Assembly (NCBI RefSeq): GCF_025526975.1
Contig: NW_026515698.1
Coordinates: 1 to 64,000 of the forward strand
Reading direction: 5' to 3'
DNA from: Fimicolochytrium jonesii
Lineage: Eukaryota
Length of the DNA: 64,000 nt
Positions within the stretch are counted from its first letter, which is position 1, and each line of letters starts with the position of its first letter. The notes below the pieces were generated by a model that was given only the letters and a program-made list of their open reading frames with translations, had not been told where the DNA came from and made no database searches. Of the stretch, positions 1-46,956 are shown piece by piece. Position numbers and translations under genes: made by a program.

Positions 1-154
1 ACTGAAGAACAGCTCCAGGTTGCCTTTGGCCAGACTTTTATAAAAGGAGAGGGCTGTTCAGATTCCCTCCCTCCAAAAGCACGCACCACCACCACGTTTC
101 AGCACCTACGCCAATACCGACACCAATACCATCGCCAACACCAGGGCCAACACC

Positions 155-1723
155 ATGCCTTTCACCGCATTCACCAACAACACCCTTTCGCCGTCGAGCC
201 TTACCTCATCCATGTCGAACACCAGCCTTCAGGTCGAAATCTCCCAGACCTCATCCAGCATCGGCAGTTTGGATGTGGAGTTGTCCATTTCTGGTTCAAA
301 CGGCTCCAACTTTCATCATCATAGTGATGAGGGGCGTGAGGACATCGAGTTGCCAACTTCTCGCTCAAGCTCTTCAGATGAGGAACACCATCACTCTCCT
401 GCCCCTCAGGATGAGCAGTTTGGGGTCTTTCGCAGTACTGGCTACTTTGATGTGGACTGGATGGCCTTTACGCTCCCTACCACAAAGCTGACCACCCTCT
501 TTGGTGCCTTCACCTTGGTTGAACTGTCTGGAGTGATGCAGCATATCAAGGACAGTGAAGCTTTCGCCGGTTGGATGCGGATCGCTAGCAGACCTTGTGT
601 CATTAGCATTCCATTCAATCCAGAGTCAAAGGCAAGGATTCTTGAGTTACTTCACAATGAACATTCGATCATCGTGAGGGAAAGCACGGATCACTCACGA
701 TTGATTGCTGGGCGGCAAAATCTGTTGATGTCTGGGTTCCAGGACATCATTGGTGCTGTGTCACCCTCTGTACGCATTGTGCAGTATGGAATGAAGCAAC
801 GCATTCGGACTTTGCCAGCTTATTCCTTTGATCAGGAAGTGAGCAACCATCCCGATGCTGCACTGAACACATGGGACATTGGTCAGACGTTGAACACTCA
901 TGGGGTCATTCCTTTGGTTCGCTACAATGGACGTGGAGTTGGCGCCACCTTTCCCATGCTCACCATCCTTGGTGAGGGATTTGGGTCCACCCGCTTTGAC
1001 ATTGCGGGTCACGCCAATGTTTGGGTTACTTGCTATCCAAAGCTTGTTCATGCGCTCAAAGCCTACTCTTCGACTTTGTCTTCGCGAATGCCCCAAACCA
1101 AGTCCAGCCTTGGGGATCGCAGTGAGACACTGAGAGGTTTACGTCAATGGCTCAACAGTCACCCGCTCCACATTACTGGCATGCGAGTTGAAGTGCGAGT
1201 TCAGTGCGCCAGGTTGGAATCAGCGGAACAGATGGTTTTGAATCTCCATTTGGACCAGATCGAGACCATTTTCCAGCACATGGGCGCAAACTCCTTGAAG
1301 CTTGTGCCGGTGGAAGAGTACTACAGTCTCATCAATGGCATCATGGACGCTGCCACCAGAGTTCTATTCAGAGGAGATCGCAATAGACAGACTACTGTGA
1401 CAGACTGTCAGCGCTTCCGAGATGTTCTCAACTCTTTTGGTTTCAATCCCGGATGGTTCAAAGGCATTGCACCCGTCATTGATCCTGCTCGTGCTTGGTG
1501 GGGTCATGGGGATGGGGAAGTGCCTGATGCTGCTCCCATTGGCAATATCCGTGAACTCTTCCATCAGCATCGTGATCAGCTTCAATGTCCCAACTGTGGA
1601 GGCTCAGCTTTTCATAGCATTGGCGGTCAGCATCGTTTCCGTCTCCGCTGCGCCAGGTACCCTGAGTGCCATACGACTTTTGGACAGAACCAAGTCCGTG
1701 ACATGCTTGCGGAAGTCCTTTAG
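155..1723 (+). CDS. Intronless 522-aa orphan protein of a telomere-associated unit; low-complexity N-terminus, C-terminal C4 zinc ribbon
   Basis: Long ORF with TATAAAA at ~39-45 and AATAAA at ~1799; CPNC...CARYPEC at the C-terminus; a diverged paralogue at 2799-3282 supports real coding. Confidence 0.8.
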   Translation: MPFTAFTNNTLSPSSLTSSMSNTSLQVEISQTSSSIGSLDVELSISGSNGSNFHHHSDEGREDIELPTSRSSSSDEEHHHSPAPQDEQFGVFRSTGYFDVDWMAFTLPTTKLTTLFGAFTLVELSGVMQHIKDSEAFAGWMRIASRPCVISIPFNPESKARILELLHNEHSIIVRESTDHSRLIAGRQNLLMSGFQDIIGAVSPSVRIVQYGMKQRIRTLPAYSFDQEVSNHPDAALNTWDIGQTLNTHGVIPLVRYNGRGVGATFPMLTILGEGFGSTRFDIAGHANVWVTCYPKLVHALKAYSSTLSSRMPQTKSSLGDRSETLRGLRQWLNSHPLHITGMRVEVRVQCARLESAEQMVLNLHLDQIETIFQHMGANSLKLVPVEEYYSLINGIMDAATRVLFRGDRNRQTTVTDCQRFRDVLNSFGFNPGWFKGIAPVIDPARAWWGHGDGEVPDAAPIGNIRELFHQHRDQLQCPNCGGSAFHSIGGQHRFRLRCARYPECHTTFGQNQVRDMLAEVL

Positions 1724-2705
1724 TACTGTTGAATGTCGTTGATAACTTTACACCAAAACCCTTTTCTGAATGTGCGCTTTTCCAATGTACTCTAAATCAA
1801 TAAATGCAATACTACTTTCCACCATTTTAAATGTTCCATGACAGAGACAGTTTGGCTGAATTTAATAAGTGATCTGGGAAATCTCTAACCCCAACCCTCT
1901 CACTCTGCGTACCCTGCAAGCAAGCCCAGGTCACGTGCTCTAACCTGCATGGACAAACTGTAGAACACTGCTTTAACCGGAAAATGTTCAACAGTTTTGG
2001 TAAATGACATTCCGCAACGGTCCTACAAACAGTCTACGATGCACAGCGGAATCACAAAATATTTACTGGAGAACACAGCCAAACCCCTTTGCCTGCACAT
2101 ACGTACTCGTGTCTTTTGTTAGGAGATCTTGGGGGTCACTACTTGAGAATTGAAAAGGGGCCCTGTTCTTCAGCCAAAAGCAAGGTTACACAAGATTTGC
2201 TACCACATCAGCTATGCAAACCATAGGCTACAATCAACTTTCATTAAGTGCTCTACACTGGATAGTCAGCCAGATGTTGAGATATCACCACATTTTCCAA
2301 CTTTTTACCCCCCGTTGCGTGAAAATTTCGTTTTTCTAAGTTTCTGAAGCCGTTTCCGCACGGATTGCCAATCCGAGAGTACTTCAATTAGAGAATATGA
2401 TATGGGGCCAACTTTTCAATTAGGACGCCAACTCCGGATCGGCACTAGAAAAATCCCAATTTGCGCAAGTCCTATAACGTATATATAACATATATGTGCC
2501 CTTTATATCAACCCCCCCCCCCCCCCTATTGGCACCCCTGCCGCCCCCCGTACCTGCACCACCGCCCATATGACCCATCACTTGCCCTTGCACACCTAGT
2601 CCTCCCCGACTTGCCTAGGTGCGCAACACCCCCCGCCACTACATCCCTCAGAGTCAAAAATTCGAACTGTAGAACACACCCAAAAGCCAGAAAACTCGAA
2701 AATTT

Positions 2706-2761
2706 CTAAGTCCCTAGGGTTCCAGGCAACCCAATAATAAAACCCAACCCAGGGGGTCTTG
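2706..2761. repeat. 56-bp telomere-adjacent cassette, copy 1 (copy 2 at 6283-6338)
   Basis: ctaagtccctagggttccaggcaacccaataataaaacccaacccagggggtcttg versus ctaagtccttagggttacaggcaacccagtaataaaacccaacccagggggccttg; both are followed directly by (TAACCC)n. Confidence 0.9.
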
Positions 2762-2798
2762 TAACCCTAACCCTAACCCTAACCCTAACCCTAACCCT
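2762..2798 (-). repeat. Interstitial telomeric tract (TTAGGG)6, G-strand on minus
   Basis: Perfect taaccc x6. Confidence 0.95.
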
Positions 2799-3282
2799 GA
2801 ACTCTTGTAGACCGCATCCTTTGCTGCCATGGTCTCCCAGTAAGCCTTCATCCCATACTGCACTATCCTAACCATTCCCCCTTCAACGCATTCCGACAAG
2901 GTCCCAATCAGGGTATCCAACGCCACATGCTGTCTGCCCTGAATCGTGCTATTAGGGCTGTCACTCCCCCGCACAATTATTCCATGGTCCCTATATAATC
3001 CCTCAATGATCCCCTCTCTAACACCCCGACTCGGCGGGATGCTCAGTATGAACGGTTGGCTCACAACCGTAATCCATTCCTTATAGAATGGGTCGTCCTT
3101 GAACGGCGGACAGCGCCCGCCATTTGGACGATGGTGGACCTATCGAACAGCTGGTTAAGATCAGTTAAACTGATCGTAACCGCCATCCAGTCCACATCGT
3201 ATTGATATGGGTGCATGGTGATATTTATTTTACCCCCGGAAAAATCCCTCTGTTGTTGTGTCGAACGCAAGGTTTGAACCAT
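2799..3282 (-). pseudogene. Frameshifted, 3'-truncated paralogue of the 155-1723 ORF
   Basis: YDVDWMAVT / HGIIVR / GRQ / VRIVQYGMK match FDVDWMAFT / HSIIVR / GRQ / VRIVQYGMK; frameshift at ~3062; the frame runs straight into telomeric repeats. Confidence 0.85.
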
Positions 3283-3823
3283 GCACCCTCGGTTGTGAAT
3301 TGAGTATCTTATGCAACTGCGCTATTTGCCATCGATGAAATGCATTGAAAACGTATTCGCCAGATGGGGCGCAGGCTAACCCTAACCAGTATGCGTGCAT
3401 AGTAGAGTTGTATAGAGTGCGCTATGGGTGTCCGGGGACTATGGGAATTCATCTGTAGGGGGTTCCTAGGTAAAGGACATGTGTATGGACTGGCTTTAAT
3501 GCATTCCAGGTGGTGTTGGATTTTGAGAAAAGCGTCAATCCTATTTTGTTTTTTGCATTTTCTGCAGCCGTTTACAGCTTAATTGCGCATCTGAGATGAC
3601 TTTAACTATGAAAACATATATCTGGCTACAACTTTCGTTACGCCCACATCGTGTTTTGGGTGGCGCAGGAAAAAGAAAAAAAAAAGTATCCCCAGCAAAA
3701 CCGGTGTTGGAACTTGGGGCACTAGTTCAAATAACATAAGCACTTGCCACTATGCCAATGTTTGTCGATAGAATGTTACCTGTGTTTGGTCGTATCCACC
3801 AGATGGCGCAAAATGCAAAATTT

Positions 3824-4420
3824 TCGAAAATTCTCTAAGTCCCACCCATTGGAGCTTGCGGGTGCCATAGCTCTGTCAATAGTGATTGAATCTCCCTGGT
3901 TTCACTTCCGTACCTATACTCTCTTTTGAATCCGCACCATTGCCCTGGATGGCCAAGGTGGTACGGATGATGTAGTGCATGCGAATGGACACGCACCGCC
4001 GGTTTTTCGCATATTTTGCTTGTTGATCGGCCAAAAACACTTTTTACCTGCACTTCTCAGCTTTTTGATTGTTTCCCTGACACTGTCAAGCAATGCTAGA
4101 CGTATTTGAAGACATTTTGAAGGAGGAAGAAAAGAAAAGAAGGCCTGGCCCCCTCTGAGAATCGAACCTGCGCCATGAGTCACCAAAATCTTTGAAAATT
4201 CTCTAAGTCCCACTCCTGGGAACTTACGTGTGCCACAGCTCCTTCAATAGTCATTGAATCTCCCTGGTTCCACTTCCGTAACTATATTATCTTTCAAATC
4301 CGCACAACTTTCCTCAGGTGTCCAAGGTGGTGCGGATGACATAGTGCATGCAAACGGACATGCACTGCATGCTTTTTGCATGATTTGCTGGTTGACAAAC
4401 ACCCTGTCATATCCATGTAT
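3824..4420. repeat. Diverged direct repeat, two copies ~370 bp apart (starting ~3826 and ~4194)
   Basis: Shared gaaaattctctaagtcccac ... tcaatagt(g/c)attgaatctccctggtt(t/c)cacttccgta ... ccaaggtggt; a similar gaaaatttctaagtccc motif precedes the cassette at 2698. Confidence 0.8.
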
Positions 4421-4488
4421 TGCAATGCAAAAAGGCATTTGCCATCCTCCACCATCAGGAGGAGCAGTGGAAGAAAAGAAAGTATTTG

Positions 4489-4823
4489 GGCCTCAAAAGG
4501 ATTTGAACATGTAGCAAATTGAGAGCAAACCAAAATGAGTCATTCGCCGCCAAGATGAAGGTTCCTAGATGTTTTTGGGGATGTTTTCTGAGACATATTC
4601 CACTTTAAGCAAATTCCATCCACTCAGAGTTTCAGAAAATGCGTTTTGGTGACATTTTAATAGTAAAAAATCTGAAAAACGGATTTTCCGGGAGCATTGC
4701 GTGGAAAACATGCCCCAAGGTTTTATGTACAGTACAGTAAGACGCCCCTGAACATTGCTAGCAACTTTATTTGACACTTTCCGGACCACCAAAAATAACC
4801 CATAACCCGGAACAGTCCTGTAA
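4489..4823. repeat. Subtelomeric segment duplicated at 5821-6218 (second copy has a ~65-bp insertion)
   Basis: ggatttgaacatg.agcaaattgagagcaaaccaaaatgagtcattcgccgccaa ... aaaaataacccataacc.ggaacagtcctgtaa in both. Confidence 0.9.
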
Positions 4824-4830
4824 GACCCTA

Positions 4831-5490
4831 ATGCCAGTTGGCACTTTTCTCAAGTTACGTGCAAAATGGGTTCCCAGATTTTTGCCTATCTCCTCGATCT
4901 GCATTCCAAAACATTCTCCATTATCAGTCAAACACTCATACGCAAGTCCTTCACATACGTCCATAGGTCATATGTGCAATATCACTAAGTCGGAAATGCA
5001 AGTTGGCACTTTTCTCAAGTTACATGCAAAATGGGTTCCCAGATTTTTGCCTATCTCCTCGATCTGCATTCCAAAACATTCTCCATTATCAGTCAAACAC
5101 TCATACGCAAGTCCTTCACATACGTCCATAGGTCATATGTGCAATATCACTAAGTCGGAAATGCAAGTTGGCACTTTTCCCAAGTTACATGCAAAATGGG
5201 TTCCCAGATTTTTGCCTATCTCCTTGAACTGCATTTCAATACATTCCCCATTATCATTCAAACACTCATCCGCAAGTCCTTCACATACGTCTATAGGTCA
5301 TATGTGTAATATCACTAAGTCGGAAATGCAAGTTGGCACTTTTCTCAAGTTACGTGCAAAATGGGTTCCCACATCTTCGCCTGTCTCCCAGATTGGCATT
5401 CCCACACATTCCCAATTATCGCTCAGATCCCTGTACATAAGTCTCTCGTATATGCTGATAAGTCCAACTTATTCTATTACTAAGTGGAGA
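4831..5490. repeat. 165-bp tandem repeat, 3 near-identical units plus a degenerate fourth
   Basis: Unit starts (atgc.agttggcac) at 4831, 4996, 5161 and 5326. Confidence 0.95.
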
Positions 5491-5579
5491 TCAGACACCA
5501 ATCATAAAGCTACCTGATGGACTCGCGTTAGGGTCCTTTGACTTTAATAAGAAAGGTAGATACATTGTTTTCGGAGGTC

Positions 5580-5712
5580 TGGACAGAAATTTAGGAACCC
5601 ATTTTGCGTGTAACTTGAGTAAAGTCAGATTTCGCCCCACTTTACCAAGGAAAAAAGTTTGTTTTGCATTTCATTCAAGTTACATGCAAAATGGGTTCCC
5701 AAATTTCTGTCT
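5580..5712. repeat. ~39-bp imperfect inverted repeat built from the 165-bp unit core
   Basis: gacagaaatttaggaacccattttgcgtgtaacttga versus tcaagttacatgcaaaatgggttcccaaatttctgtc. Confidence 0.85.
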
Positions 5713-5805
5713 AGGGGCTCGAAAGCCCTCAAACTATAACTTTAATTATCAGCTGTAGCCTGTCTGAGATGATCACCTCAAAACCCTGAACCCAGACCCC
5801 CTTTG

Positions 5806-5820
5806 TAACCCTAACCCTAA
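5806..5820 (-). repeat. Short interstitial telomeric tract at a unit junction
   Basis: taaccctaaccctaa immediately followed by the start of the 5821-6218 duplicate. Confidence 0.85.
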
Positions 5821-6215
5821 GGCCTTAAAGGGATTTGAACATGGAGCAAATTGAGAGCAAACCAAAATGAGTCATTCGCCGCCAACTGGAGAACACCCCC
5901 ATATTGCCTGGAAACAAAAAGTACCAGGAGTTGATGAATACTAGAGTAGATGAAGGTTCCTAGATGTTTTTGGGGTTGTTTTCCAAGACATATTCCACTT
6001 TAAGCGAAATCCATCCACTCAGAGTTTCAGAAAATGCATTTTGGCAATAGTTTCATAGTAAAAAATCGGAAAAACAGATTTTCCCGGGGCATTGAGTGGA
6101 AAACATGCCCCAAAATTTGAAGCACATTACAGTAAGATGCCCCTGAACATTGCTAGCAACTTTGTTTGACACTTTTTGGATGGCCAAAAATAACCCATAA
6201 CCGGGAACAGTCCTG

Positions 6216-6378
6216 TAACCCTAACCCTAACCCTAACCCTAAAGGTTTTATTACTGGGTTGCCTGTAACCCTAACCCTAACCCTAAGTCCTTAGGGTTAC
6301 AGGCAACCCAGTAATAAAACCCAACCCAGGGGGCCTTGTAACCCTAAGCCCTAACCCTAACCCTAACCCTAACCCTAA
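6216..6378 (-). repeat. Three telomeric tracts (6216-6242, 6266-6286, 6339-6378) with cassette copy 2 and a 31-bp perfect inverted repeat
   Basis: Arms 6244-6274 and 6291-6321 are exact reverse complements. Confidence 0.95.
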
Positions 6379-7933
6379 ACCAGTTTGAATACCGATACTG
6401 CTGATCCCGACCGCACGGAACTCAGTCTCGCGGGTGGTCCCGAGATTTCTATTGTCCCGGAGCAATCCTGAAAGGTACAGATGCTACAGTGCAACGAAGC
6501 TGACCATAGCGGAATGGGGTTCATCCACGCTTTCCTGCACATGTAGTATACCGAATAAGTTATATGGGATATCCCCACCTATGTGACATCCGCACCGGTA
6601 TATGGATGGGACTGCCGCCGCTCTTGGCGGTAATGCAGATCAGATGATTCTTATTACAGTACGTTATCTGGCAGAAAGCTTCAAATATGAGTTGCACGTT
6701 GGTTGGGCGCCGTGCTATGATTCGCCCTGCTCAATTTGCCCTTAGACAATGCAAATAGCGCGGTACCCAATTGCTCATATGGGTTGATTGTACTGGTCAT
6801 CCTGCTCCTGACGGACAAATGAGGGAAGTCTAAAAGTTTGTTACGGAGGGAGGAGAGCCTTGTTCCCCTCAGGTCCACCCTGGCTAAGCCACTGACAGTT
6901 TTTTGACGACTTTTGGACTTAACAAGGTTTTCGCAGAACCAAAGTTGCTGCACATGTTGAGCAGTATCTTGACAGCCAGACATGCTAGCAGAAAGATTGA
7001 TTAGGCAGTTTGGTGAAGAAGGCACTGGTTCAGGGTTTGACAACCTCTAACTGGCAAGTTTTACCCAAAAACGGCCAAGGAAAGACAGTTTTACTACTCA
7101 GACTTTTGGGCCTCTGTGTTAAGTTTGTTGCAACAGCTACCCCCACAGACACTTAGAGGGGATTGGCCAAAGTAGGCAACTGGAGCCGTATGCAAAGGGA
7201 ATAGGTCGTCCTGCATGTCTGTGGGATGGTATGGCTGCTCAAAAAAGAGGGTTTTGTGAGGAAACTGCTTTAATTTCCCTAATTGTGCCTTAAGGTAACG
7301 CGTAGAGCGTTTGGGGGTGGCGCAGTGAGGGTGGACCTGAGTTGTTCCCGCCGCTCTCTTTCGTTGGGTGCGTCCGAAAGCGCGTTCCTTCCGCCAGACA
7401 CACAACGGTCCCAGACAGTGCTTCTGTCGCTCGCGCCACTCTCACAAGGATTGGATGGCGACGGCCCATACCGCTCCGTCTAACGGGGCCGGTAAACAAT
7501 TTTTCGCCAGTTTGGCAGTCATTGTGGTCTTGTGATTTGTAGATGGACCAAATTGTTTAATCTCGGCCCTAACCAAGCCGGACCCCTCCGTCCCGGCCCC
7601 CGGTTATGAATGACCTTGGAAAAATGGCCATTGAAGGACCAAGCGCAGCGTTCGCCATTGGGAATTGTCTTCAGACAAGCGACCGGCCAAAATTCCGTAC
7701 TCACTCTACTCCTACTACCAAATTCTCCAAGGCCGACGGCTCACGCTCCTTCGGGTAGGCTCCAATAGATGTTGTGCATGAGGGGTCGCAAGATGAAAAA
7801 ATATCTAGGCAAGCGCCTTGAAGGGCGGAGAGGGAACTTAAAAAGCCGGCGTGGGATATGAACGTCGCGAGCAGAACCAGCCTCATTTCTCGTCTCCGGT
7901 GCCTGTCGTAGTGCACGTTTCACCAATTTAAAG

Positions 7934-9072
7934 ATGAAGCTGTCGTTTGCCACATTGGCGGCCGTCGCCGCGGTTGCCCTTCCGCCCACCGTCGTCGCGA
8001 AAGAATGTCTTGACTGGCCATTGGACAACGTATGCGGTCTTGTGAAGAACAACGCGGGCCAGTCGCTGAAGGTTGCAAACGGATGGGGAAGAAGCAACAA
8101 GGACAGTTACGACGAGTTCGATGGGGAAACCACGTTCAAGAAAGTCACAGTGAACCCCAACCAAAGTAGCAAGGACCAGGGGGTAAGAGAGAAGAGTAGG
8201 GAAAGGGACTTGTGTGTGTGTGAGGGAACTAATCATATATCAATCTTCCAGGTCAAGGATGCGGACGGTGTTTTCGTCCCCAAGGGCTGCAGGTTCACGT
8301 ACGACCAAGAAACGCTGAAAGCAAAATCGTACGACCACGAATGGAGTCGGGAGGGTCGCGATTCCGGCCTGTGGATCAAGATTCAAAGCATCGATATCAT
8401 CACGGTGACGAGGATCTCATGTGCTTCTTCTGGCCCTACACAAGATGCCAAATGTACCAATATCGGTGGAAAGTGCCAGTACACCGCGAATGCCTGCAGC
8501 GCTGGATACTTGACAGGCTATTGCCCTAGTTCCCAGGCCAACGTTAAGTGCTGGTGAGTACCGACTGTTGTTGAAATGAGTAAGCCGTGGGCAACGCTCG
8601 CTGCAGGAACCCGGTTCGGAGGGGGCTCGCTCCTGCCCATATCTCCCGATGATGCTTCGGTTGGAAAACCTTGGTTCAGATCTAATCAGGATCCGTTTTT
8701 GCTTCGCAACAGCCCAAGCAAACCAAGCGGACCGGTCCAGGACACCCAGTGCAAAAACTGGAACGGTGTCTGTCAGAATAGTTCCCAGGGTTGCAGCGGC
8801 GGTTACCGAGTCGGCTTGTGCCCCAGCTCCGGCAACAGCATCAAATGCTGGTAAGGAACAACAAGCGTACAAAACGCATCGCACTTGTGGGCCCTCTTCT
8901 CACCCATTCCTATCGGAAATGTAGCCTTTCCATCAAGCAGGACAATGCATGCCTCGACGCCGGCGGTTTGTGCCAAGACATCAACAAGAAGTCTTGTAAG
9001 AAGGGGTATATGACCGGCAAATGCCCCAGCAGCGGCAACAACATCAAGTGCTGGTACGAGGCTTGCCGATGA
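7934..9072 (+). CDS. Secreted protein: Cys-containing N-domain plus three defensin-like Cys-rich repeats; predicted introns 8183-8251, 8554-8712, 8851-8924
   Basis: Signal peptide MKLSFATLAAVAAVA; repeats C-x3-(G/N)G-x-CQ...C-x2-GY-x2-G-x-CPSS-x4-KC(C); GT-AG introns restore the frame. Confidence 0.85.
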
Positions 9073-30300: not shown

Positions 30301-30800
30301 CGACGCGCGATATCTACTTCAATGACTTGGTGCTCGCCTTCGAACGCTGGGGGAAACTCAACGACGACGGGTCGATCGCACCGGACGCATTGCCTGCGCA
30401 CCACGATGGCATTGATATCAGAGACGGCAGCGGGTTCCACGCCGCATTGGTCTACGATGTGAATGTCGGCAACTGCATCTACTACGTGACCATGCTATTC
30501 CTGCAATTCGGCGGGCTGATGGCCGCGCGCAACCGGCGGATGTCCACCTTCCACGCCAACCCCTTCTCGGGCCCGCGGCGTAACGGGGCGATTGGCGTCA
30601 GCATGCTCGTGTCGCTGTCCATCGCGCTGGTGGTGCTGTACGTTCCCGCCTTCAATAACGTGTTTGCGACGACCCCAATTCCAGTTATGTACTGGTTCAT
30701 ACCAATGGCGCTGGGAGTGGGCGTGCTGAGCATGGATGAGGCGAGAAAGGCAGTGGTGAGGGCGTACCCGCGCAGTGTTGTTGCCAGATTGGCTTGGTAG
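27363..30800 (+). CDS. P-type ATPase, type IIC-like (Na+/K+ or H+/K+ alpha-subunit-like); 3 predicted introns
   Basis: VPADIR, LTGE, CSDKTGTLT, FNSKNK, KGAP, DPPR, MVTGD, TGDGVND; multiple TM segments. Confidence 0.93.
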
Positions 30801-31042
30801 GCCGCGCCATCCCTCTCTTTAGAATTTACATAGCCCACATAGACATATGTGCCTTCAATGGCAGCTGCCCGTTCCACTTGTATGATGCACTCGTTTACAT
30901 GAAATAATGAGAAAACTCCGTTGAGTGGATATTGTAACATTGAAAACACTATTCAACCTACGTGCGCTTCTCTACGGCCTACTCTTCTATGTTGATCTTC
31001 AGTGCGCATCCTAGGCTTTGATCGCAACGACAATGTTGGCCT
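30728..31042. repeat. 315-bp direct repeat, left copy (right copy 56582-56896)
   Basis: Covers the ATPase 3' end, the intergenic region and the last codons (ANIVVAIKA*) of the methyltransferase; a few substitutions between copies. Confidence 0.95.
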
Positions 31043-31808: not shown

Positions 31809-33003
31809 TCTTGCGGTATTGAACACCACCAGGTATTAATAGCACCAACGATCGTGGAATTTCTACACCCGCAAGCTGGAAGCCGTTGCAGAAGGATCAC
31901 CCGATTGGACTACCTTTGTGTGTAAACAGAAAGACCACATAAAGCGTTATTTCAAAGACGATCTGAGCAAGCAAGAGCAATATTTGACACTCGTAAAGTC
32001 CCTGCGTTTCCTCCTGCCTACCGATACGTCCGCGGCACTGTACGTCAACGGGTTCCGATTCGTGCCGTTGGAGGTCTCGCACCTGGGCAAGTGGTCTACG
32101 CCCCAGTCCCCGTGGCTCGGGAGCTCATGGAGGCGCCTACTGTTATCCTGGATATGCAAGCGATTACCTATCTTCTCACGCTCGACCGGTGCGCTGACCC
32201 TCTCCTCGACGACGAGGAGGACGAGAACTCCGTAGATTTGCAGAACCTAGCCGACACGCAGCGTTGTCGTCAGGAAGTTCTGACAAACGCGCACTACGAG
32301 GAGGGGAGCTGCTTTGACGAGTGGCCATCGTGGGTCCAGAGATGGGGCAAGGATTGGAGGAAGGATCGCGGGCCATTTTTGTCTGTTTACCGGCGGAAGC
32401 GTAAGGTGTTTGAGGTGCAGGCACCATGGCCATGGGGGGGTCTTGGGCCGAAAGTTTTTCACAACTGCATACCCGGCAAGGGACGGGAGTATGAGGGAGC
32501 CTATTCAGCGTATTACGTAGACGGCTCCCTCCAGTTCTTCGTTTTGATCGCAATTCAACTTGTTGAAAGAGTGGGAAGAGCGAGCCATGAGCGTAAGTGG
32601 CGGGCACGTGACTAATTATAACTATGGCCGAGTCCGCCCCGGACGACCCCTTCCTACTCTTCCTTCCCTTCCTCTTTCCCTTTTCCCTTTTCTTCTTCCT
32701 TACCTTCCCTCATACCCTCTGAGCACGATTCTTTGAAACCCACCCACCCTCTCCTATGTATTTGTTTGTATAACCTTCGGAGAACGTGCAGCGTTCCCCT
32801 CTTCTTCGCAAATATTCCCCTCGTCTTCGCAAATACACCTTCTACTCTCCAAACATCACAACCTTCTACTCTCCAAACATCACGGGGTGGGATCAGCGGG
32901 CGAGCGTTCCCAAACGCTAACTGTTCGCAATCTAATTGGGATGGGCTTACCATATGCAAAATAGCCTGATTACCCTACTATAAATTCCTTCTGTCGATCG
33001 CTA

Positions 33004-34535
33004 TTGTTTGTCCGATGCGGGTTCCTTGCGTTCACCATGTCCGAATGCGTAGACTTTGTCGTCAACGCGCTCACTGGACCAGCTCTCCAGTGGTGGAAAA
33101 GCCTTCCTGAAAACGAACGCTTCTCCATAATTTCATGGCACGATATTCAAGACGTCTATGGACTGCCCCCGCCACTCGGACTACGCTCCGCAATGTTGAG
33201 GTGCTTCATTCCCCGGACTCATCTGCCGCAAGTTCTTCACAGACTGCGCGCTCTGAAGCCCAAGTCAATTAACCATCAAGGTTTAACCGAATTCGTCGCC
33301 CAGTTCAACCTTTTGGCTGGACAACTCCCCGGGCTCCCGGAATACGTGCTCTGCGCCGACTTCCTTCAAGCCCTTCCTAAGAATGTTGGTACCCTGATCA
33401 CTGCTCAGGCTCAGTACAATGATAGACTTAGTCCTTCTCAAGAAGCCGCGATTCGCATAGCCGCGCAGCTCAACAAGAAGACCCCGAGTACGCCTCAGTC
33501 GGGCGCATCCGCTGCCCACGTTACTTCCACTCTACCTCAGAAGAAGAAGAACAAATCCAAGACTGGCGGCTCTAGAAGCTCCTCCTCTACCCAATCCTCA
33601 TCTTCTGACGCAACCAAGAAGCCTCCCCAGTGCAAATACTGCAATAGGGACGGCCACAAGTCGGATAACTGCTTTACTTACAAAGCTGTCAAGGATATCA
33701 TGGACAAGAACGCGAAAACCAAGCAGGACGCACCCGCTGCAGCCTCCATGGCTTATGCCATGCACGTTCAAGTCCAACCAGCCAACCACGACGTCCACCT
33801 CTTCAAGGCGAACGTGGATTCCGGTTGTACGGATCATATGACCCCTTATATCAAGGATCTAGATCCATCTTCTCTTCAAGACTACCACCGCCTTATTGGA
33901 CTCGCGGATTCGACTACCATTACCTCGCAAAAGAAGGGTACCGGACTTATCCAACCTACGTCCGGCGGCGAAGTTCTCGCTCTTCGCGATGTTCTATTGG
34001 TTCCCAGTCTTGCCCAGCCGCTTATATCTGTTGCTAAATGCACTGATAACGGCGTTACCGTCTCCTTTCACCCCACCGACGTCGTTACGTTCAACACCGA
34101 CCGACATTTACTCGCAATGGGGATGCGCGAAGGCGACGCGTACTATTTAGAAGGACGGGTTACTACCTACAAGCCCAATGCCCAGGCACTGGTCGCTTCC
34201 ATAACCCCCCAACTTCTGCATCAACGTCTTGGACACCCTGGAAACCACATTCTCCCGGTTATGCCTAAGATAGTAGAGGATTAGCCTTCAGTGGGGGCTA
34301 CGCCGGACTCCGGCGCACGCTGCGATCCATGCGCTCTCGGCAAAGCTACCCGCCTTACCTTCCCTAAATGGACATCCCCGCCACATAAACCCGGCGAGCT
34401 GATTCACAGCGATTTACAAGGTCCATTTCGGATCCACGGCATCAACGGAGAGCGCTACAGTCTCGCGTTCCTCGACGACGGCTCCGATTTTGCCCGTACC
34501 TACTCCATCAAGGACAAGGAGGCATCCACTATTAC
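33004..34535 (+). mobile_element. Ty1/copia retrotransposon, gag-protease-5' integrase; in-frame stop at 34282-34284; truncated by a Ty3 LTR
   Basis: CKYCNRDGHKSDNC knuckle, VDSGCTDHM, LHQRLGH, CDPCALGK, IHSDLQGP. Confidence 0.92.
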
Positions 34536-35074
34536 TGTTATGATCTCGAGGACGGGGGCGGAAGCGAAGTAGAGAAGACAGGGCGAGTGTGATAGGCGAC
34601 CAGAGATTGTATTGGCGAAACAAGAAACAAGGACTAGAACAGGAGATGAGAAGAACTGGTGTTGATCTGCTGGGGAGGAAGGGAATGGACGAAGAGAGGC
34701 CGGCTATTTATAGATAGGCAACCCAGCAGATCAGAGAACAACAACAACAAGAGGGGACTGGGGGGGGCGCCAGCTATGCTCCTAGAGCGTGCGTGGCGAG
34801 CGTAGAGAGCATTGCTACAGCTGCTGGCTATGGTAAAGTAGTGGGGGGTGTGGAGAAGCCGAGGGGGATTGGCGAAATGAGAGGAGAGAGGAGGAGTGGC
34901 AATATTGCAAGAGGATTGGCGAAATGAGAGGAGAGAGGGGGAGTGGCATTGACATTGTCATTGACACTGACATTGACACTGACATTGACATTGACATTGG
35001 CGTTTGACATTTGGCGGTTGACATTGGCGGCTGTCAGTAGGTAAGCTTATGGTATGGGCGCGTCGTCCATAACA
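34536..35074 (-). mobile_element. 3' LTR of a Ty3/gypsy chromovirus
   Basis: TGTTATG...CATAACA termini; adjacent PPT aaagagaggggtga on minus; TATA on minus at ~34704-34712; (TGACA[T/C])n microsatellite. Confidence 0.92.
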
Positions 35075-38000
35075 TCACCCCTCTCTTTAGCGGCGGCAGC
35101 GGCGGCGTCGAGTTTGGTGTGGCCGCAGAGGAGGTGCTACCGGGACAGAGGAAGGCTTGTTGGGGTACGCGTTGTGGAAGTCCTGGAGGAGTGCGTCGGT
35201 ATGGGTGAGGTGTTCCACGGGCTCCCAGGTGTTCTCGGAGTCAGGCCAGCCCTGCCATTTGACCAAGTACTGAAGGCGACGATAATGGATGCGAGAGTCA
35301 AGGATGGCTTCGACAACCCACTCTTCTTGACCCTCAACGGTCTCTGGGGGCGCGGGTTTGGGTTCGTGTCGTTCGGGGATGGTGAAGCGGGGTTCGAGGA
35401 GCGAGACACGAAGACATCGTGGATTTTGTACGTAGGCGGGAGCTTGAGCCGGTAGGCTACGGAATTGATTTTTTCAACGATGGGGAATGGCCCAATCTTG
35501 CGATGGTCGAGTTTCTGAGAGGGCCGGGTTGTCTGGAGGTTTTTGCGGAGAAGCCAGACGTGGTCGCCAGGCTTGAAGTCCGGTCCAGGAATTCGTTTGG
35601 CGTCGGCGTAGCGCTTCATTTGATCTTGGGCTTCCTTGAGCTCGAGGGCCAGCTGTTCATGGACTTCCCTGATTTGTTTAGCGCGGGCTTCAGCGGCGGG
35701 GTTGACGGATTCGGAGGTAGCAGAGGCCGCAAAACTGAAGCGGGGGTGGAGACCTTTGTTGGCGTAGAAGGGGGTGGTCTGGGAGGCGGACTGGTGGGTG
35801 TTGTTGTAGGCGAACTCGGCGGACGACAGAAGCTGTTTCCAGTTGTCCTGTTGGTGGTTGCAAAAGCATCGGAGATACTGCTCCAGGATCTGGTTGGTGC
35901 GTTCCGTCTGGCCATCGCTCTGGGGGTGGAAGGCCGAGGAGAGATTGGCTTTTGCCCCAAGGAGTTCGAGAAGTCGACGCCAGAACCGGGACTTAAACTG
36001 GGGTCCTCGGTCAGAGATGACGTCGTCTGGGAGGCTGTGGAGACGGATGATGTTGTGGAAGACTAGGTCGGCGGTGGATTCGGCGGATTCTGACTCACTG
36101 CAGGCGATGAAGTGGGCCATCTTGGTGAGGCGACAGTTGACATTCAGGATGGAGTCGTACCCGTCCACGGGAGGCAGACCGGTGATAAAGCCCAGGGACC
36201 AGGATCCCCAAGGGCGTGTAAGGATAAGGTTGGGCTGGAGAAGATTGTACGGTGTGTGTCGACTGGATTTCGCTTGGCAACAGATATCGCAGGACTTGAC
36301 GTAGGCTTTTGGCGAAGCGCCACTGACTGGGCCACCAGTAGTTGCAGGAGACGAGTTCAAGGGTCTTGGCCATGCCAAAGTGACCAGCAAAGGGGCGTGT
36401 TGTGCATGTCGTGGCAGATTTGGGCCCTGAGGTCGTTCATAGGGACGTAGCCTAGATTCTGGTGCAGGAGGATGCCATCTTCTTTGGTGAAGTGCTTGAG
36501 TCGCCTTGATTCTCTTTGGTCGTTCCGCTGGGTTGGCCTGGAGCTGGGATTGGATGGTCTTGGCAAATGGATCGTTTACTAAGGTAGCGCGGATGCGATC
36601 GAGGAGGGGGGAACCCATCGGAGTCAGGTACGCGGCGGAGAGGTGAAGGCAATTTGGGGTCAGAGTTGGTGTTTCTTGGGAGTCGAAGGCGAAGGCTCTT
36701 TTGGTTCAAATTCCGACCAACGAGAGAGGGCGTCGGCCTGGTGGTGCAGGGTTCCGGGTTGGTAGGTGATGACGAAGTTGAAGTCGGCGAAGAACAAGGC
36801 CCAGCGGGACTGGCGACAATTCAGCTTACGGGTGGTCGCCTGGGAGCGGAATGCTTCTTCCCTCTCCTTTAGTTGATGTTCGGAGCGGCGGGAGAGGGCA
36901 TTGGCTTGGCGCTGCTGGGAGCCGGGACGATAGGTGATGACAAAGTTAAAATCCGAGAAGAATATGAACCAGGGGGCTTGGCGAGGCTTCAGGATGCGTG
37001 TGGTCATGAAGTATTGAAGGTTTTTGTGGTTGGAGTAAACGGTGATCGGGTGACGGGCGCCAATGAGATGGTGTCGCCACTGGGCAAAGGAGTCTTGAAT
37101 GGCCAGAAGTTCCTTGTCGTAGATTGCGTAGTTGATTTTTTCGGCCGTGAATATGCGGGAGTGGAAGGCAACAGGGTGGAGCTGATTGTCCTTGTCGGGT
37201 TGGAGGAGAACTGCCCCAAGAGCAAAGTCGGAGGCATCCGTTTCAACGACAGAAGGTTTTGCTGGGTCGGGGTGGGCAAGAATGGGAGCAGAGGTGAACG
37301 CGGCTTTGAGTTGGTTGAAGGTTGCATTGGTGGCGGGCGTCCATTGGAACAGGATGTCATTGCGGGGCAGAGATGTCAGGGGGGTGACGATACGGGAGTA
37401 GTGGTAGGTAACGCGTCGGTAGAAGTTGGCAAATCCTAGGAAGCGCTGGATGCCTTGGACATTGGTCGGAGGTTCCCACTCAGTAATAGCAGAGATCTTC
37501 TTGGGGTCCATAGCGATGTTTTCTTCGAGGTCGATCGGGCAGGCGTAAGGTGGGTCTTCCGGGAGAGTATCTGCATGCTTCTTCTCAAAGACATCAGCGA
37601 AGTCCTGGTATCCTTCGGGCAGGAGTTCCTTCAGGGTAGGCTTGGGGGCATCAGGCTTCTGGGTACTAGGCCTGGGCGAGGCATGGTCAGGGGCTGGAAT
37701 CTCGATGTTGTCTTGGGGGACCCCGATCAACGGGTTCCGTGCCTTGGGCTCAGGGCCAGGTGTCGTGGCAGGTAAGGGATCCCAGCGTGCGCAGCTGGCG
37801 GAGTCGCAATGGCAACAGAATCCCAGAGCGGGTCTTCCATTGCAGGTCCATATCATGTAACTCCAACCACGGCCGGCCCAGGATAATGGGAGCGTGCGGT
37901 GAGCGAGTGATGTGGAATGTGACTTCCTCGAAGTGGTCGTTAACCCACATTCCTAAGGGTTGGGTGTGATGAGTTATTTCACCAGCGCTGCTGGGACGGC

Positions 38001-39266
38001 CATCGACGAGTTCGAGCGTGAGCGGGATTTCCCGGGTGACCCGAGGGGTGCAATGTTCGCGAGCGTAGGCTTCCTCCATGAAACAGGATATCGCACAGAG
38101 GTCTGGGAGGGCGGAACGCTGGAGTGGGGCTTGGCGAGAGGAGATCTGGAGGGTGACTGGGTGTTCGAAGGGTGCTGAAGGTGCCAGGACTGGTAGTGCG
38201 AGCGGGTTGGTACTGGGTGACTCAAAGGTCTTGGTAGCTAGAAGTAGGGTGTTGCTGGTGGCTTGGAAACCGAGACAGGAGGCGGGCATTCCCTTTTGGG
38301 AACCCCGCGGAGACTGGGACAGGAGGCGAGCATTCCTTTGGGAACCTCGCGGACACTGGGACGGGAGGCGAGCGTTCTTTTGGGAACCTCGCGGAAAGAG
38401 ACCATGGGAGGGTGGCCCCCGCCGTTGCAATTGCTGCGTGGTGAGGTGGCCCAAGAAAACAGGGTACTGCGGATCGTAGGGAGGCGGTGGCTGGCTTCGC
38501 CGTTGCAGATGGTGCAGGGTAAGAAGGCCAGGGAAGTTGGGGTCGGGAAATGTCGGACGTGCGGAAGACGGAACGGAGGTGGAGGCTGTATTCAGCTGCC
38601 ACATGACAAGACGGGTGGCGTTGACAACGGTCCTTGAAGTGGTTGTTTGCCCACATGCCCTCGGGTAATGGGTGTGATGGGTTATTGAGATTCTTCAGGG
38701 TGTCGTCTTCGTGCCTGCGACTGGGATACGGGACTCGGATTGGGATGACCGGAAACAGGGGTGTCGAGCAGGAACGAGAGGGTTGGCTTCTTCCGTTGCA
38801 GTAGATGCTGAGGTGAGCAAGCCCAAGGAAAACACACGGGCAGAGCGGGTGGAGTGTTGAGGGTTCCAGGGTGTCGGAGGTGGGGTGTCGGGGTCCGGGG
38901 TTTAGTTACAGGGTGACCGGGTTACAGCAGGTGCCAAGCCGAGCTGGAGTTGGGTGCTAGGACGACTAGGGCTGGTTCAGGATGCTGAGGTTGCCTGGAC
39001 TTGCGCCGATCTTTGGCTCCAGAGCTTCAGGCGCAGGGTAGGTGACTTGGGGACGGGTGTACGCATCGGCTTGAGCCTGGGCGGCAATGTTCTGAGCAGC
39101 TTGTGCGTTGGCTTGGGCTTGGGCTACGTTGGGGTTGACTTTGGCACATATCATTCCATTGCTTTGGCGGTGAAAGGTACAGATTCGGATTGGGACATGG
39201 CGAACAGGTTTGGCAGATGCAAGGCTTGACGGGTTCTGAACTTCGCAGTGTTGGAGCAGATCAAAC
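35075..39266 (-). mobile_element. Decayed Ty3/gypsy chromovirus internal region (gag remnant, protease, RT with core deleted, RNase H, integrase, chromodomain)
   Basis: ETDASD, YDKELLAI, VISDRGPQF, HPQSDGQTERTNQ, GPF; chromodomain-like QYLVKW..TWEP after a frameshift; multiple frameshifts. Confidence 0.92.
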
Positions 39267-39809
39267 TGTTATGATCTCGACGACTGAGGCGGAAGCGAAG
39301 TAGAGAAGACAAGGCGAGAGTGATAGGCGGCAAGAGATTGTATTGGCGAAACAAGAAACAAGGACTAGAACAGGAGATGAGAAGAACTGGTGTTGATCTG
39401 CTGGGGGATCAGGAAGTGGGGAGCTCAGGGGAGGCGGCTATTTATGTTTTTCTGGGAAGGCTGGGGAAGCGTGGGGAAGCAGAAGGGTACGGAATGAGAG
39501 GGAAGCCAAGAGAAGCGCCAAGGGTGGGGAAGCATAGAAACAGAAGACTGGGGATGGGGTGGCTACGCTGAGGCTGTGGGCGGGTACGTGGGGAAGTATG
39601 GAGAAGGGTTTGTAAGCGCCGAGTGTTGGGAGGTGTGGCTACGTGCGGCTGCGTGGAGAAATGAAGGCAGTGGCAGGTGTGGGGTAGCGCGGCTGCGTGC
39701 GGCTGCGAGGTTTGGCAGATGTCAGGTTTTGACAGGGAATTGACATTGACTGACTGTTTGGGATGCTGTCATGAGGTAAGCGCATGGTATGGACGCGTCG
39801 TCCATAACA
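39267..39809 (-). mobile_element. LTR of a related subfamily (shared R-U5 and termini, different U3)
   Basis: TGTTATG...CATAACA; the first ~140 bp match the 34536 LTR, the middle does not. Confidence 0.9.
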
Positions 39810-40980
39810 GGTAGCAATCAGGGCCTGGTCATTCCAGGAGACATCGCATTGTAGCTGGCGGAACTCAGCGACGTACTCGGTTGCTGCACGGGTTTGGCGA
39901 AGGTTCTGGAGCTTGTTTTCAGAGGTGCGGACCCTGTCGCTGTCTCCGAAGACCGATTGCATCTGACTGATAAAACTATTGAAGTCCTGAAGGCTGTGAT
40001 CTTGGCGTTCGACTAGGGGCGCCATCCAGGCTTGCGCAGTGCCGGTGAGGTAGGTGCCAATAGTTTGGATCTTGATGATGTCGCTGGGGTAGCGGTCGGG
40101 CTGGAGAGCAAACATCAACCGGATGTTGTTCCACCACCCACGGAATTTGCTGCGGGTACCATCAAACTTCTGGGGCGAGCTGATTCTTGGCTCCAGAGCA
40201 GGGTTGGCGACTTGGGGACGGGTGTACGTATCGGCTTGAACCTGGGCGGCGATGCTCTGGGCAGCTTGTGCGTCGGCTTGGGCTTGCACTAGGTTGGCCT
40301 GCAAGTTGGCGTTTTGGCTTTGCAAGGCGGCGATGGCTTGGCACATATCGTTCCATTGCTTGGCGGTGAAAGGTACGGATTCGGGTTGGGACATGGCGAA
40401 AAAGGTTTGTCGGATGCAGGGCTGGACAGGTTCTGAACTTTGCAGTGTTGGAGCAGATCAAACTGTTATGATCTCGACGACGGGGCGGAAGCGAAGTAGG
40501 GAAGGCAGGGCGAGTGTGATAGGCGACCAGAGATTGTATTGGCGAAACAAGAAACAAGGACTAGAACAGGAGATGAGAAGAACTGGTGTTGATCTGCTGG
40601 GGAGGAAGGGAATGGACGAAGAGAGGCCAGCTATTTATAGATAGGCAACCCAGCAGATCAGAGAACAACAACAACAAGAGGGGACTGGGGGGGCGCCAGC
40701 TATGCTCCTAGAGCGTGCGTGGCGAGCGTAGAGAGCATTGCTACAGCTGCTGGCTATGGGGAAGTAGTGGGGGGTGTGGAGAAGCCGAGGGGGGATTGGC
40801 GAAATGAGAGGAGAGAGGAGGAGTGGCGATATTGCAAGAGGATTGACGAAATGAGAGGAGAGAGGGGGAGTGGCATTGACATTGTCATTGACACTGACAT
40901 TGACACTGACATTGACATTGACATTGGCGTTTGACATTTGGCGGTTGACATTGGCGGCTGTCAGTAGGTAAGCTTATGGT
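39810..40980 (-). mobile_element. Ty3 gag (truncated by the 39267 LTR) plus 5' LTR 40464-40980, near-identical to 34536-35052 but lacking its last ~22 bp
   Basis: PQKFDG..., YLTGTAQAW, L.Q...ATEY..EF retrotransposon gag; LTR alignment. Confidence 0.9.
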
Positions 40981-46663: not shown

Positions 46664-46956
46664 AGTCCCGGGCTACTTGTTCTAAGGGCGAACTCGTTGT
46701 CGTTGCGGGTTGTATAAACTGTCTATTTTTGGTTCCATCCCTTCCGCTGCTGCATCCCCACAGTTCTGCGGTAATAAGATTTCTGTTTCACAGCCCTTCC
46801 CCCGCACGAAATGACCCGCCCCGAAGGCGGGGGGCGCCAGCCCTCGTACAATAGAAAGGAAGTACGAAAGGATACAATACAAAGGAAGTTCGAAAATAGG
46901 AGGTTTCCCCGACATCACTCACACGCTTTCCCATCACCCACTCAAGCAACTCCGCA

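Follow-up and report, generated by a model that had tools for sequence, protein, structure and literature searches.

The first 6,378 nt of the 64,000-nt stretch of Fimicolochytrium jonesii DNA analyzed here (the window) hold a chain of related DNA units with short telomeric tracts between them; the right end of the units is fixed (…TGTAACCC), and their left ends are variable. Two units of the chain carry a Rep-like gene. Neither the first unit's left end nor the chromosome end is visible in the window, and host-type genes start at ~7.9 kb, beyond the innermost tract (tract 5). The chain comprises the following features:

155..1723, + strand: intact Rep-like ORF of 522 aa (frame open from 44), with an acidic N-terminus, a predicted TBP-like Rep_trans-type catalytic domain, a helical region and a C-terminal C4 zinc ribbon; conserved residues at nt 449/455 and 875 (Asp), 1034 (Tyr) and 1184-1192 (Arg-x-Glu)
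2339..2453, + strand: non-coding module homologous to 3557-3674, common to the two Rep-bearing units (z 8.2 versus 40 base shuffles)
2698..2767, + strand: right end of unit 1, with the GAAAATT..CTAAGT motif, cassette copy 1 and the end TGTAACCC
2762..2798, + strand: telomeric tract 1, (TAACCC)6
2799..3216, - strand: first (5') third of a Rep paralogue, directed toward position 1
3376..3388, + strand: degenerate two-unit telomeric piece
3557..3674, + strand: copy 2 of the non-coding module at 2339-2453
3816..4560, + strand: pair of diverged ~368-bp units arranged head to tail; both contain the GAAAATT..CTAAGT motif and, on the - strand, a piece resembling a tRNA B box
4489..4829, + strand: end module that contains an imperfect palindrome (~220 nt) and terminates in one degenerate telomeric unit; paralogous to 5821-6218
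4830..5491, + strand: 165-bp tandem array of ~4 copies, with CTAAGT in every copy
5579..5714, no strand assigned: fold-back made of the array's 45-nt motif (z -11.5)
5780..5820, + strand: conserved end motif and telomeric tract 2
5821..6242, + strand: left-truncated copy of the 4489-4823 unit, with the conserved end motif and telomeric tract 3 (6216-6242)
6243..6286, + strand: inverted piece of the adjoining cassette and tract 4, forming a perfect 31-bp palindrome with 6291-6321
6283..6378, + strand: cassette copy 2 and innermost tract 5 (6339-6378), with the CTAAGT start in register with the telomere repeat

A strict scan (at least two perfect TAACCC or GGGTTA units) found five tracts in 1-6400 and none in 6401-64000, which confirms the five tracts of one polarity reported in the first-pass annotation. 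These (TAACCC)n tracts (2762-2798, 5806-5820, 6216-6242, 6266-6286, and 6339-6378) are C-rich on the + strand in every case and are confined to 2762-6378, leaving the remaining 57.6 kb without any; TG directly precedes all five. Two degenerate telomeric pieces also occur, at 3376-3388 and 4821-4830. At 53690-53742 there is a G-rich run of degenerate sequence; it was dropped as a candidate part of the telomeric-unit system, being degenerate, of reverse polarity, and without the common ends.

The blocks between the tracts had been described as partial copies of one another, and this held for the ORF and its paralogue (155-1723 and 2799-3216) as well as for 4489-4823 and 5821-6218, which share 95% identity over 65 nt and 88.5% over 279 nt, the second copy being ~62 nt longer. 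The proposed 56-bp cassette is indeed present twice, but it is slightly longer than stated, with 58 of 62 nt identical between 2706-2767 and 6283-6344. Overall, the paralogous blocks are 81-95% identical and differ by indels, and the 165-bp copies are not identical to each other. Three diverged end families place the same terminal motif directly against telomere repeats, and tandem units and hairpins lie near the unit ends. No true tRNA genes were found. As for the left ends, the arbitrary cut that had been proposed is seen at 2799, 5821, and 6243, but not at 6283, where cassette copy 2 begins exactly at the recurrent CTAAGT motif; the homology of the two cassette copies starts exactly at CTAA. 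The junction at 2799 falls mid-gene and reads CT/GA, with the paralogue severed around codons 139-141, where repeats cap it at a microhomology of AGG.

In a non-redundant 2.8 kb, CTAAGT occurs four times on the + strand and never on the - strand, against 0.5 expected (P 0.001, for a hexamer picked post hoc), and it shows no enrichment across the whole window (16 versus 17.4 expected). The pattern GAAAATTYN{0,8}CTAAGT, itself taken from the same data, was seen four times versus 0.03 expected. CTAA is found at junctions with hairpins close by, and no G/C-rich hairpin with a CTAA loop was defined. The block at 6244-6286 matches the neighboring cassette in inverted orientation at 31 of 31 positions, versus 28 of 31 for the distant copy. 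The 6243-6286 block is likely a product of local fold-back extension that required no element enzyme, and the palindrome at 6244-6321 implies that telomere-primed copying is possible without one.

The paralogue at 2799-3216 is 96-100% identical to residues 1-141 of the F. jonesii protein KAI8817892, with one frameshift near 3115, and an identical protein is encoded by two consecutive F. jonesii locus tags. The ORF at 155-1723 and this truncated paralogue belong to a family that numbers 380 mostly unnamed proteins at E<=1e-3 (191 of them at E<=1e-10), with members from Cryptococcus neoformans; word-based searches returned only 2, 2, and 3 relatives. Among 97 aligned sequences, D4 and D6 are conserved in 73 of the 73 rows with a residue, D146 and H204 in all 97, Y199 and E251 in 96, and R249 in 95, so that the Asp/Asp/Tyr/Arg-x-Glu set is 98-100% conserved among rows with a residue. 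The order of D4/D6, D146, Y199, and R249-x-E251 is that of the Rep_trans motifs N'-I-III-IV (Asp/Asp/Glu plus Tyr), matched by order and strand only; this motif order is given in PMC5714925. Motifs I-III differ from the bacterial consensus, with N-x-W-D instead of RxD and Y-P-x-x-x-H instead of YxKxxE. Neither the window ORF nor any of 148 relatives has a Pfam match to Rep_trans (PF02486), and comparing profiles by hhalign gave no match to a RepC fragment (probability 2%). Judged from its sequences, the family is a putative distant sister group of PF02486 that lies outside PF02486 proper.

Searches for other domains gave no HUH or helicase Pfam match in the window ORF or the 148 relatives and nothing significant in PDB sequence searches. 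An HxH pair is absent among the conserved columns, and the catalytic-candidate Tyr lies on a strand, not a helix. An OTU protease match was found in 23 of 148 relatives; OTU domains also occur in Helentrons. A telomere-binding Myb domain was dropped as a family trait, with one weak Myb_Rap1 match (P0137, E 0.0019) in 148, and translated telomere repeats were found at the ends of none of 156 proteins. The identical tandem locus tags, the OTU domain in relatives, and the tandem units and hairpins near the ends suggest that the family belongs to a mobile element.

An AlphaFold model of the Rep-like ORF (pLDDT 93) places the whole conserved Asp/Asp/Tyr/Arg-x-Glu set on beta-strands. An earlier model built from three sequences reached pLDDT 43.5, and its Foldseek run was uninformative. 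In the Foldseek comparison with the PDB, the top four rows are Rep_trans initiators (4cwe at E 1.2e-3 and probability 0.97; 4cwc; 4cij), although no match reaches E<=0.001 and TM by query is 0.24. VIA-align ranked RepSTK1 first among 48,161 chains (186 residues aligned, rmsd 4.6), at a Z of 6.1 that is tied with unrelated helical bundles and under the tool's caution level of 8. Upon re-alignment, the top 12 rows were all Rep_trans or TBP. The top rows of these three PDB comparisons span model residues 1-289, at modest scores (E 1.2e-3, Z 6.1-6.4). A viral library returned Inoviridae Rep proteins, and an Atlas feature search gave no usable match. For a Cryptococcus member with a weak model, Atlas structure rows 1 and 3 were Phage_CRI and Rep_trans clusters, under the naming bar. 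The protein of ORF 155-1723, taken as cargo in the first-pass annotation, is predicted to be a TBP-like, Rep_trans-type, non-HUH DNA nickase and is the likely mobilizer; its gene is present in two copies of opposite direction.

The sole relative retrieved with flanking DNA was a marine metagenome locus (L001; 26% identity). Its gene is severed just past the RxE motif and followed by TTTAGGG repeats to the contig end, with CTAA on the C-strand at the junction, so that one of one outside loci with DNA is telomere-capped. In locus scans, the family was found in 0 of 153 and then 1 of 128 metagenome stretches, in 0 of 22, 0 of 42, 0 of 8, and 0 of 24 viral stretches, and in 0 of 2 prokaryotic genome stretches. 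Plasmids and phages gave weak unrelated matches only, one of them a phage tail-region gene; end-motif scans of viral contigs gave one microsatellite-like and 11 scattered matches, none close to a family gene.

The fixed proximal ends, truncated distal ends, and telomerase-type caps bear out a mobile-element system tied to telomeric repeats, and our data also support its being an undescribed family. From the unit anatomy, gene family, and invariant residues that we observed, together with the predicted fold, we infer that the chain was probably built by an undescribed telomere-specialized rolling-circle DNA transposon with a tyrosine nickase of predicted TBP fold, and that healing by telomerase and local copying by fold-back contributed as well. 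This assessment covers Rep-driven mobility on either strand. In the G-strand version, which we hold tentatively, the conserved right end, rich in hairpins, would serve as the binding site of Rep; the enzyme would then nick the G-rich strand where the junction resembles telomere sequence and remain on the 5' end via its tyrosine. At a short chromosome end, the free 3'-OH would attack the Rep-bound 5' end, the donor strand would be displaced by host polymerase, and copying would halt at a variable point; the end so formed would be capped by telomerase and its C-strand completed by fill-in. Recurring cycles would leave the units with a fixed inner and a ragged outer end, all in one polarity, without any reverse transcriptase (RT), and non-coding units would be mobilized in trans. 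According to PMC9371924, binding sites of Rep_trans and MOB_T lie downstream of the nick; this geometry fits the G-strand here. Rolling-circle transposases frequently overrun their terminator. Against the G-strand version, the conserved bacterial nick CT'AA is on the C-strand here; against Rep-driven mobility in general, the telomere link outside the window comes from one locus, L001, none of the 156 proteins ends in translated telomere repeats, and the 6244-6321 palindrome shows telomere-primed copying in which no element enzyme is needed.

The same Rep-driven element might instead be nicked on the C-strand at CT'AA, with a 5' end AAGTCC, a 3' end TGTAACCCT, and insertion within telomeric tracts at CCCT'AA, the ragged left ends reflecting later breakage and telomerase healing. 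We regard this version as rather unlikely. Rep_trans and MOB_T enzymes nick at a conserved CT'AA (PMC9371924), a sequence that each CCCTAA repeat contains, and such insertion has been proposed for Paramecium Helitrons (PMC13085455); the strand bias of CTAAGT and its composite pattern (a post hoc hexamer and a data-derived pattern), the exact CTAA start of cassette copy 2 and of the inter-cassette homology, and the C-strand CTAA at the L001 junction point the same way. However, CTAA complements TTAG, which is a natural seed for telomerase, and healing would therefore be expected to give the same coincidence. Moreover, of the left junctions at 2799, 5821, 6243, and 6283, the motif is found only at 6283, with 2799 lying mid-gene; none of the large units is seen complete with its two ends; and CTAAGT is not enriched window-wide. 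A passive origin, in which break-induced replication or fold-back lets eroded ends invade short telomere-like sequences, at other ends or on their own strand, before telomerase heals them, the Rep-like genes being ordinary transposons accumulating in subtelomeres, appears unlikely. It gives the best account of the perfect local palindrome at 6244-6321, is compatible through healing with the AGG and TTAG junction microhomologies, and yields the fixed right end from any donor ending in telomere repeats, but it leaves unexplained why three diverged end families carry the same terminal motif against repeats and why both Rep-bearing units and the distant relative L001 abut telomere repeats.

The first-pass annotation implied an RNA route of the Athena/Coprina, Terminon, or MoTeR kind, which our searches do not support. 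No RT-like motif was detected in frames of at least 100 aa left of 54 kb, the RT-linked Pfam matches in the window are ordinary LTR elements only (33-44 and 61 kb), and neither a Penelope-type RT nor an ORF combining RT and restriction-like endonuclease (MoTeR/FoTeR/CNL1 type) was found in the window. A Rfam search of 1-8000 at E<=5 found no hammerhead, though a divergent one could escape it; its seven matches were all miRNA- or sRNA-type chance matches on hairpins. Terminon- or Athena/Coprina-like elements whose RT is encoded elsewhere, and for which the telomeric 3' end primes on RNAs ending UGUAACCC with the Rep-like gene as an accessory, are thus a distinctly improbable source. Their anatomy does match (5'-truncated copies, short-repeat caps, head-to-tail chains), including the fixed 3' end with C-rich repeats and the telomere-capped truncated ends of Terminons and endonuclease-less Penelope-like elements. 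Rep ORFs can occur in Terminons, as PMC6431247 indicates, ORF 155-1723 has the sense expected of such an RNA, and the DNA left of position 1 is outside the window. Nevertheless, besides the missing RT and hammerhead, none of 148 relatives has a fused RT domain, and the paralogue and L001 lie in the orientation opposite to such an RNA; Rep-like gene copies in opposite directions are more in keeping with a DNA element than with a single RNA template. As for an assembly artefact from chimeric or fold-back long reads joined at telomere repeats, a perfect palindrome, like a 1-nt frameshift, is something that reads can produce falsely. Such an origin is nonetheless highly improbable, given blocks that are 81-95% identical with indels, 165-bp copies that differ from each other, and the same gene-plus-telomere geometry in the unrelated assembly of L001.

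The closest known enzymes are the Rep_trans/MOB_T initiators (PF02486: pT181 RepC, RepDE 4CWC, RepSTK1 4CIJ, RelSt3), inovirus Phage_CRI Reps, and archaeal Rep-Arvir. Rep_trans/MOB_T initiators share with our family the predicted TBP-like fold, the equal order of Asp, Asp, Tyr, and RxE on beta-strands, and the junction CTAA. Rep_trans enzymes work as homodimers, cut CT'AA in the loop of a hairpin and become joined to the 5' end as a phosphotyrosine. In contrast, the family is eukaryotic and chromosomal, shows 7-12% identity in structural alignments and no Pfam match, and has altered motifs I-III, an extra invariant Lys/His, a C-terminal zinc ribbon, and an OTU protease in many relatives. Helitron transposases combine HUH with a helicase. 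The closest working analogue is the telomeric Helitrons of Paramecium (PMC13085455), rolling-circle DNA transposons in telomeric repeats with absolute polarity, short repeats past the inner end, internal satellites, ORF-less derivatives, and either ORF orientation; their transposase ORFs are 9-10 kb, whereas here we find a 520-aa predicted TBP-fold protein and no helicase in the window. Terminons, Athena, and Coprina likewise form chains with a fixed inner end on telomere repeats and a truncated, capped outer end, but are defined by RT and a terminal hammerhead, neither of which was found here. MoTeR, FoTeR, and CNL1 non-LTR elements encode an RT with a restriction-like endonuclease. They resemble our chain in being fungal, at chromosome ends, and with internal tandem repeats, and they differ in that enzyme, which is absent from the window. 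Replitrons (PMC10288648) are also small single-gene eukaryotic transposons, rolling-circle Rep-derived and without a helicase, but have an HUH endonuclease and short terminal direct repeats; their paper mentions neither Rep_trans nor telomeres.

As of April 2026, PMC13107129 treats Rep_trans as a bacterial family with an archaeal sister group, and the literature searched (main texts, largely of open-access papers) contained no eukaryotic Rep_trans transposon. The chances are about even that we are dealing with a eukaryotic DNA transposon class undescribed in that literature, present in chytrid and basidiomycete fungi (including C. neoformans) as well as in a eukaryote whose telomeres are TTTAGGG, in which a Rep_trans tyrosine nickase of bacterial-plasmid type splices single-stranded copies onto telomeres. 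What the window offers is a gene that is intact, a model of high confidence, and junctions that can be read, and a small single protein with a short defined end is directly testable with oligonucleotides. The eukaryotic rolling-circle transposons described in the literature covered, Helitrons and Replitrons, use HUH enzymes; a Rep_trans-based transposon, if true, would be a new transposase chemistry for eukaryotes. Hundreds of unnamed proteins, among them those of repeated hypothetical genes in C. neoformans, would also gain a function. Finally, such a transposon would represent a purely DNA-based counterpart of telomere-extending retroelements, lengthening and remodeling chromosome ends, and thus an RT-free route for their extension and shuffling.

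The left part of the window (1-6378) holds a chain of related DNA units set between short telomeric tracts, and this chain is a real feature. A strict tract scan returned five tracts in 1-6400 versus none in 6401-64000. All five are C-rich on the + strand, which upholds the single polarity reported in the first-pass annotation, and comparison of the window with itself likewise bore out the block homologies described there. Host-type genes occur from ~7.9 kb, so the chromosome interior is likely on the right-hand side of the chain.

Features of the chain
155-1723 (+): intact gene of 522 aa (the window ORF), predicted Rep_trans-like
2339-2453 and 3557-3674: module common to two places
2706-2767 and 6283-6344: two copies of a ~60-nt right-end cassette, first end family
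2762-2798: telomeric tract
2799-3216 (-): truncated paralogue of the window ORF
3816-4560: tandem pair, 368-bp
4790/6190: second end family
4830-5491: 165-bp array
5780-5805: third end family
5806-5820, 6216-6242, 6266-6286 and 6339-6378: telomeric tracts

Each of the five tracts is directly preceded by TG, and the three diverged end families have a common layout (A-run, AACCC, AACC, 7-13 nt, TGTAA), with a fold-back immediately inside every one. A strict version of this layout, drawn from the same data, matched 3 ends versus 0.01 expected. The left junctions of the units are all unlike each other. Inner ends are fixed and outer ends ragged, with a single polarity across the chain. The two Rep-bearing units hold modules in common, and their genes run opposite ways. 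In addition, tRNA B-box-like motifs lie within units at 4167, 4508 and 5840 (-), with T-rich runs after 4167 and 4508, and the 5821 unit is cut right after its tRNA-like piece; ARAGORN called no tRNA.

Several other features were recorded to the right of the chain. The product of the 7862-9060 (+) gene is likely secreted: its N-terminus is signal-like, and it has three short repeats rich in cysteine; the first exon had no Pfam match. Nested LTR retrotransposon remains occupy 32965-44000: a gag-protease is copia-like, fragments of gag, protease, RNase H and integrase are of Ty3/gypsy type, and two LTR-like repeats (34534-35053 and 40462-40980) match at 98%. A 320-bp direct repeat (30723-31042 and 56578-56896; 97.5%) may consist of solo LTRs or of a short non-autonomous element. 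The 45803-46672 (-) ORF (289 aa) had a weak DUF1287 match only and by eye looks like the small ORF for a DNA-binding protein in Harbinger-type transposons, and the 48594-49589 (+) ORF, with an AEP primase domain match (AEP_C962R, E 1.9e-5), may be left over from a giant virus or a Polinton. A pair of 850-bp inverted repeats, 73% identical (52245-53067 and 63188-63999, ~10 kb between), encloses an integrase zinc-finger ORF (61083-61835) as well as genes of host type. A perfect 27-bp inverted pair lies at 52212-52328, and a degenerate GGGTTA/GGGTTC run at 53690-53742 has polarity opposite to the chain's tracts.

The window ORF is 41% identical to an F. jonesii protein, to which the 2799-3216 fragment is far closer (100% over residues 1-35, 96% over residues 33-141); this closeness would place the window in F. 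jonesii or a near relative. Two consecutive locus tags encode this protein identically, which suggests a putative recent tandem copy. Pfam gave only sub-threshold zinc-ribbon matches for the window ORF, and a profile search retrieved 380 relatives at E<=1e-3. We aligned the window ORF with 96 relatives, chosen by length and coverage from the 150 listed of those 380. D4 and D6 are kept in all 73 rows long enough to reach them, and the 97 rows conserve K119 (97), D146 (97), G182 (96), Y199 (96), H204 (97), K207 (94), R249 (95) and E251 (96); the window ORF retains every one of these positions. Among 20 relatives looked up, two sources are named, C. neoformans (14 of the 15 members listed for a cluster of 41) and Phlyctochytrium arcticum, a chytrid; all others are unnamed or "hypothetical". 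The cluster of the relative P0041 places the family in many C. neoformans strains, often in fragments on small contigs; one locus tag, C356_00003, hints at a contig start. The available text of a 2026 C. neoformans transposon paper (PMC12810828) does not mention the family. An OTU protease match was found in 23 of 148 relatives, a domain also carried by Helentrons (PMC6431247). In a quick tree of 95 rows, the window ORF, the F. jonesii protein and four unnamed sequences fall together, separate from a group with the OTU-bearing and Cryptococcus sequences. No family member turned up when prokaryotic genomes, plasmids, phages and viral contigs were scanned by pattern, an insensitive method.

Rep_trans enzymes are described in the sections available of PMC5714925 as having motifs N' (D), RxD, T/SxY/ExG, YxKxxE and W/LxRxE and a tyrosine placed on a beta-sheet; RelSt3 needs D, D, E and Y (PMC6499999, in excerpt). 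Ahead of any fold search, motif order suggested a candidate Rep_trans identity, although the residues flanking motifs I-III are not the same. In a model of a family protein (pLDDT 93.3, pTM 0.82), the conserved residues sit on strands E4-13, E144-151, E191-200 and E248-255, preserving the Rep_trans motif order. The best four Foldseek rows against PDB were Rep_trans initiators (4cwe, E 1.2e-3, probability 0.97; 4cwc, 1.8e-3, 0.98; 4cij, 0.4-0.5), with TBP at rank 8 and no row at E<=0.001; when the candidates were re-aligned, 12 of 12 best rows were Rep_trans or TBP. In VIA-align, RepSTK1 came first among 48,161 chains (Z 6.1; 186 aligned, rmsd 4.6), within 1 Z of helical bundles that match the helical region alone. 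Named rows of a viral structure library included Inoviridae replication proteins, and its rank 9 is an entry termed an inovirus Rep_trans initiator in the part of PMC13107129 available. PF02486 matched none of 148 relatives, and the family profile did not match a RepC fragment. We consider it very probable that the family is distantly Rep_trans-like, a predicted tyrosine nickase.

A metagenome pattern scan recovered one family locus (1 of 128 pattern matches), L001, whose gene runs slightly beyond the RxE motif and then into TTTAGGG repeats. This single case has the geometry of 2799-3216 in a host with another telomere repeat. L004, an IMG/VR contig, starts with perfect and degenerate TAACCC repeats (32-265), before a 1360-aa ORF, and has no family gene.

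A Rep_trans enzyme cuts a single strand and keeps its 5' end bound to the tyrosine, a bond that a free 3'-OH can undo (PMC5714925, sections available); the nick is CT'AA, with the binding site downstream (PMC9371924, in excerpt). We consider Rep-driven mobility at telomeres somewhat probable. In the version that we favor, tentatively, the fixed end would serve as the G-strand origin, and its nick would lie upstream of both hairpin and end motif; the telomere's own 3'-OH would act as acceptor, and loose termination would be followed by a telomerase cap. Rolling-circle transposases often miss their terminator. A C-strand nick at CT'AA with insertion inside tracts is a doubtful second version: cassette copy 2 begins at CTAA, and CTAAGT, a hexamer chosen after the fact, is strand-biased (4 versus 0.5 expected in a non-redundant 2.8 kb, P 0.001), but TTAG doubles as a telomerase seed. 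The 2799 junction, which falls mid-gene with AGG microhomology, calls for healing in both versions.

A Terminon-like retroelement, with its reverse transcriptase (RT) elsewhere in the genome, would match the anatomy of the chain, and Terminons can bear Rep ORFs (PMC6431247, section 8, as available). However, the RT-linked Pfam matches among 16 other long ORFs are LTR elements, Rfam found no hammerhead in 1-8000 and none of 148 relatives carries an RT fusion. The earlier remark that no RT was visible agrees with the absence of RT-like motifs in frames >= 100 aa left of 54 kb. We regard this origin as improbable; of the first-pass proposal, a mobile-element system linked to telomeric repeats is supported, and the implied retroelement route is not. 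A wholly passive origin is unlikely, if less so, and keeps that standing because block 6243-6286 shows that passive copying adds to the chain's make-up. This block matches its neighbor at 31/31 and the distant copy at 28/31, and since the neighbor is the closer match, it is likely, on sequence grounds, that a new G-tail folded onto the cassette-internal TAACCCTAA.

Compared with known systems, Rep-driven mobility would be closest in its way of working to the telomeric Helitrons of Paramecium (PMC13085455, in part), whereas the chain has no HUH motif or helicase; its element is also neither a Replitron (PMC10288648) nor one of the MoTeR, FoTeR and CNL1 type (PMC12857005, PMC12810828), as far as the available text describes these. 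A eukaryotic Rep_trans transposon appeared neither in the literature searched (excluding Repbase, Dfam, most subscription journals and supplements) nor in the accessible portion of PMC12477816. According to the available part of PMC13107129, Rep_trans enzymes seem confined to bacteria, their sister family being archaeal. The chain likely represents an undescribed class of rolling-circle DNA transposons that are associated with telomeres and use a predicted Rep_trans-like enzyme.
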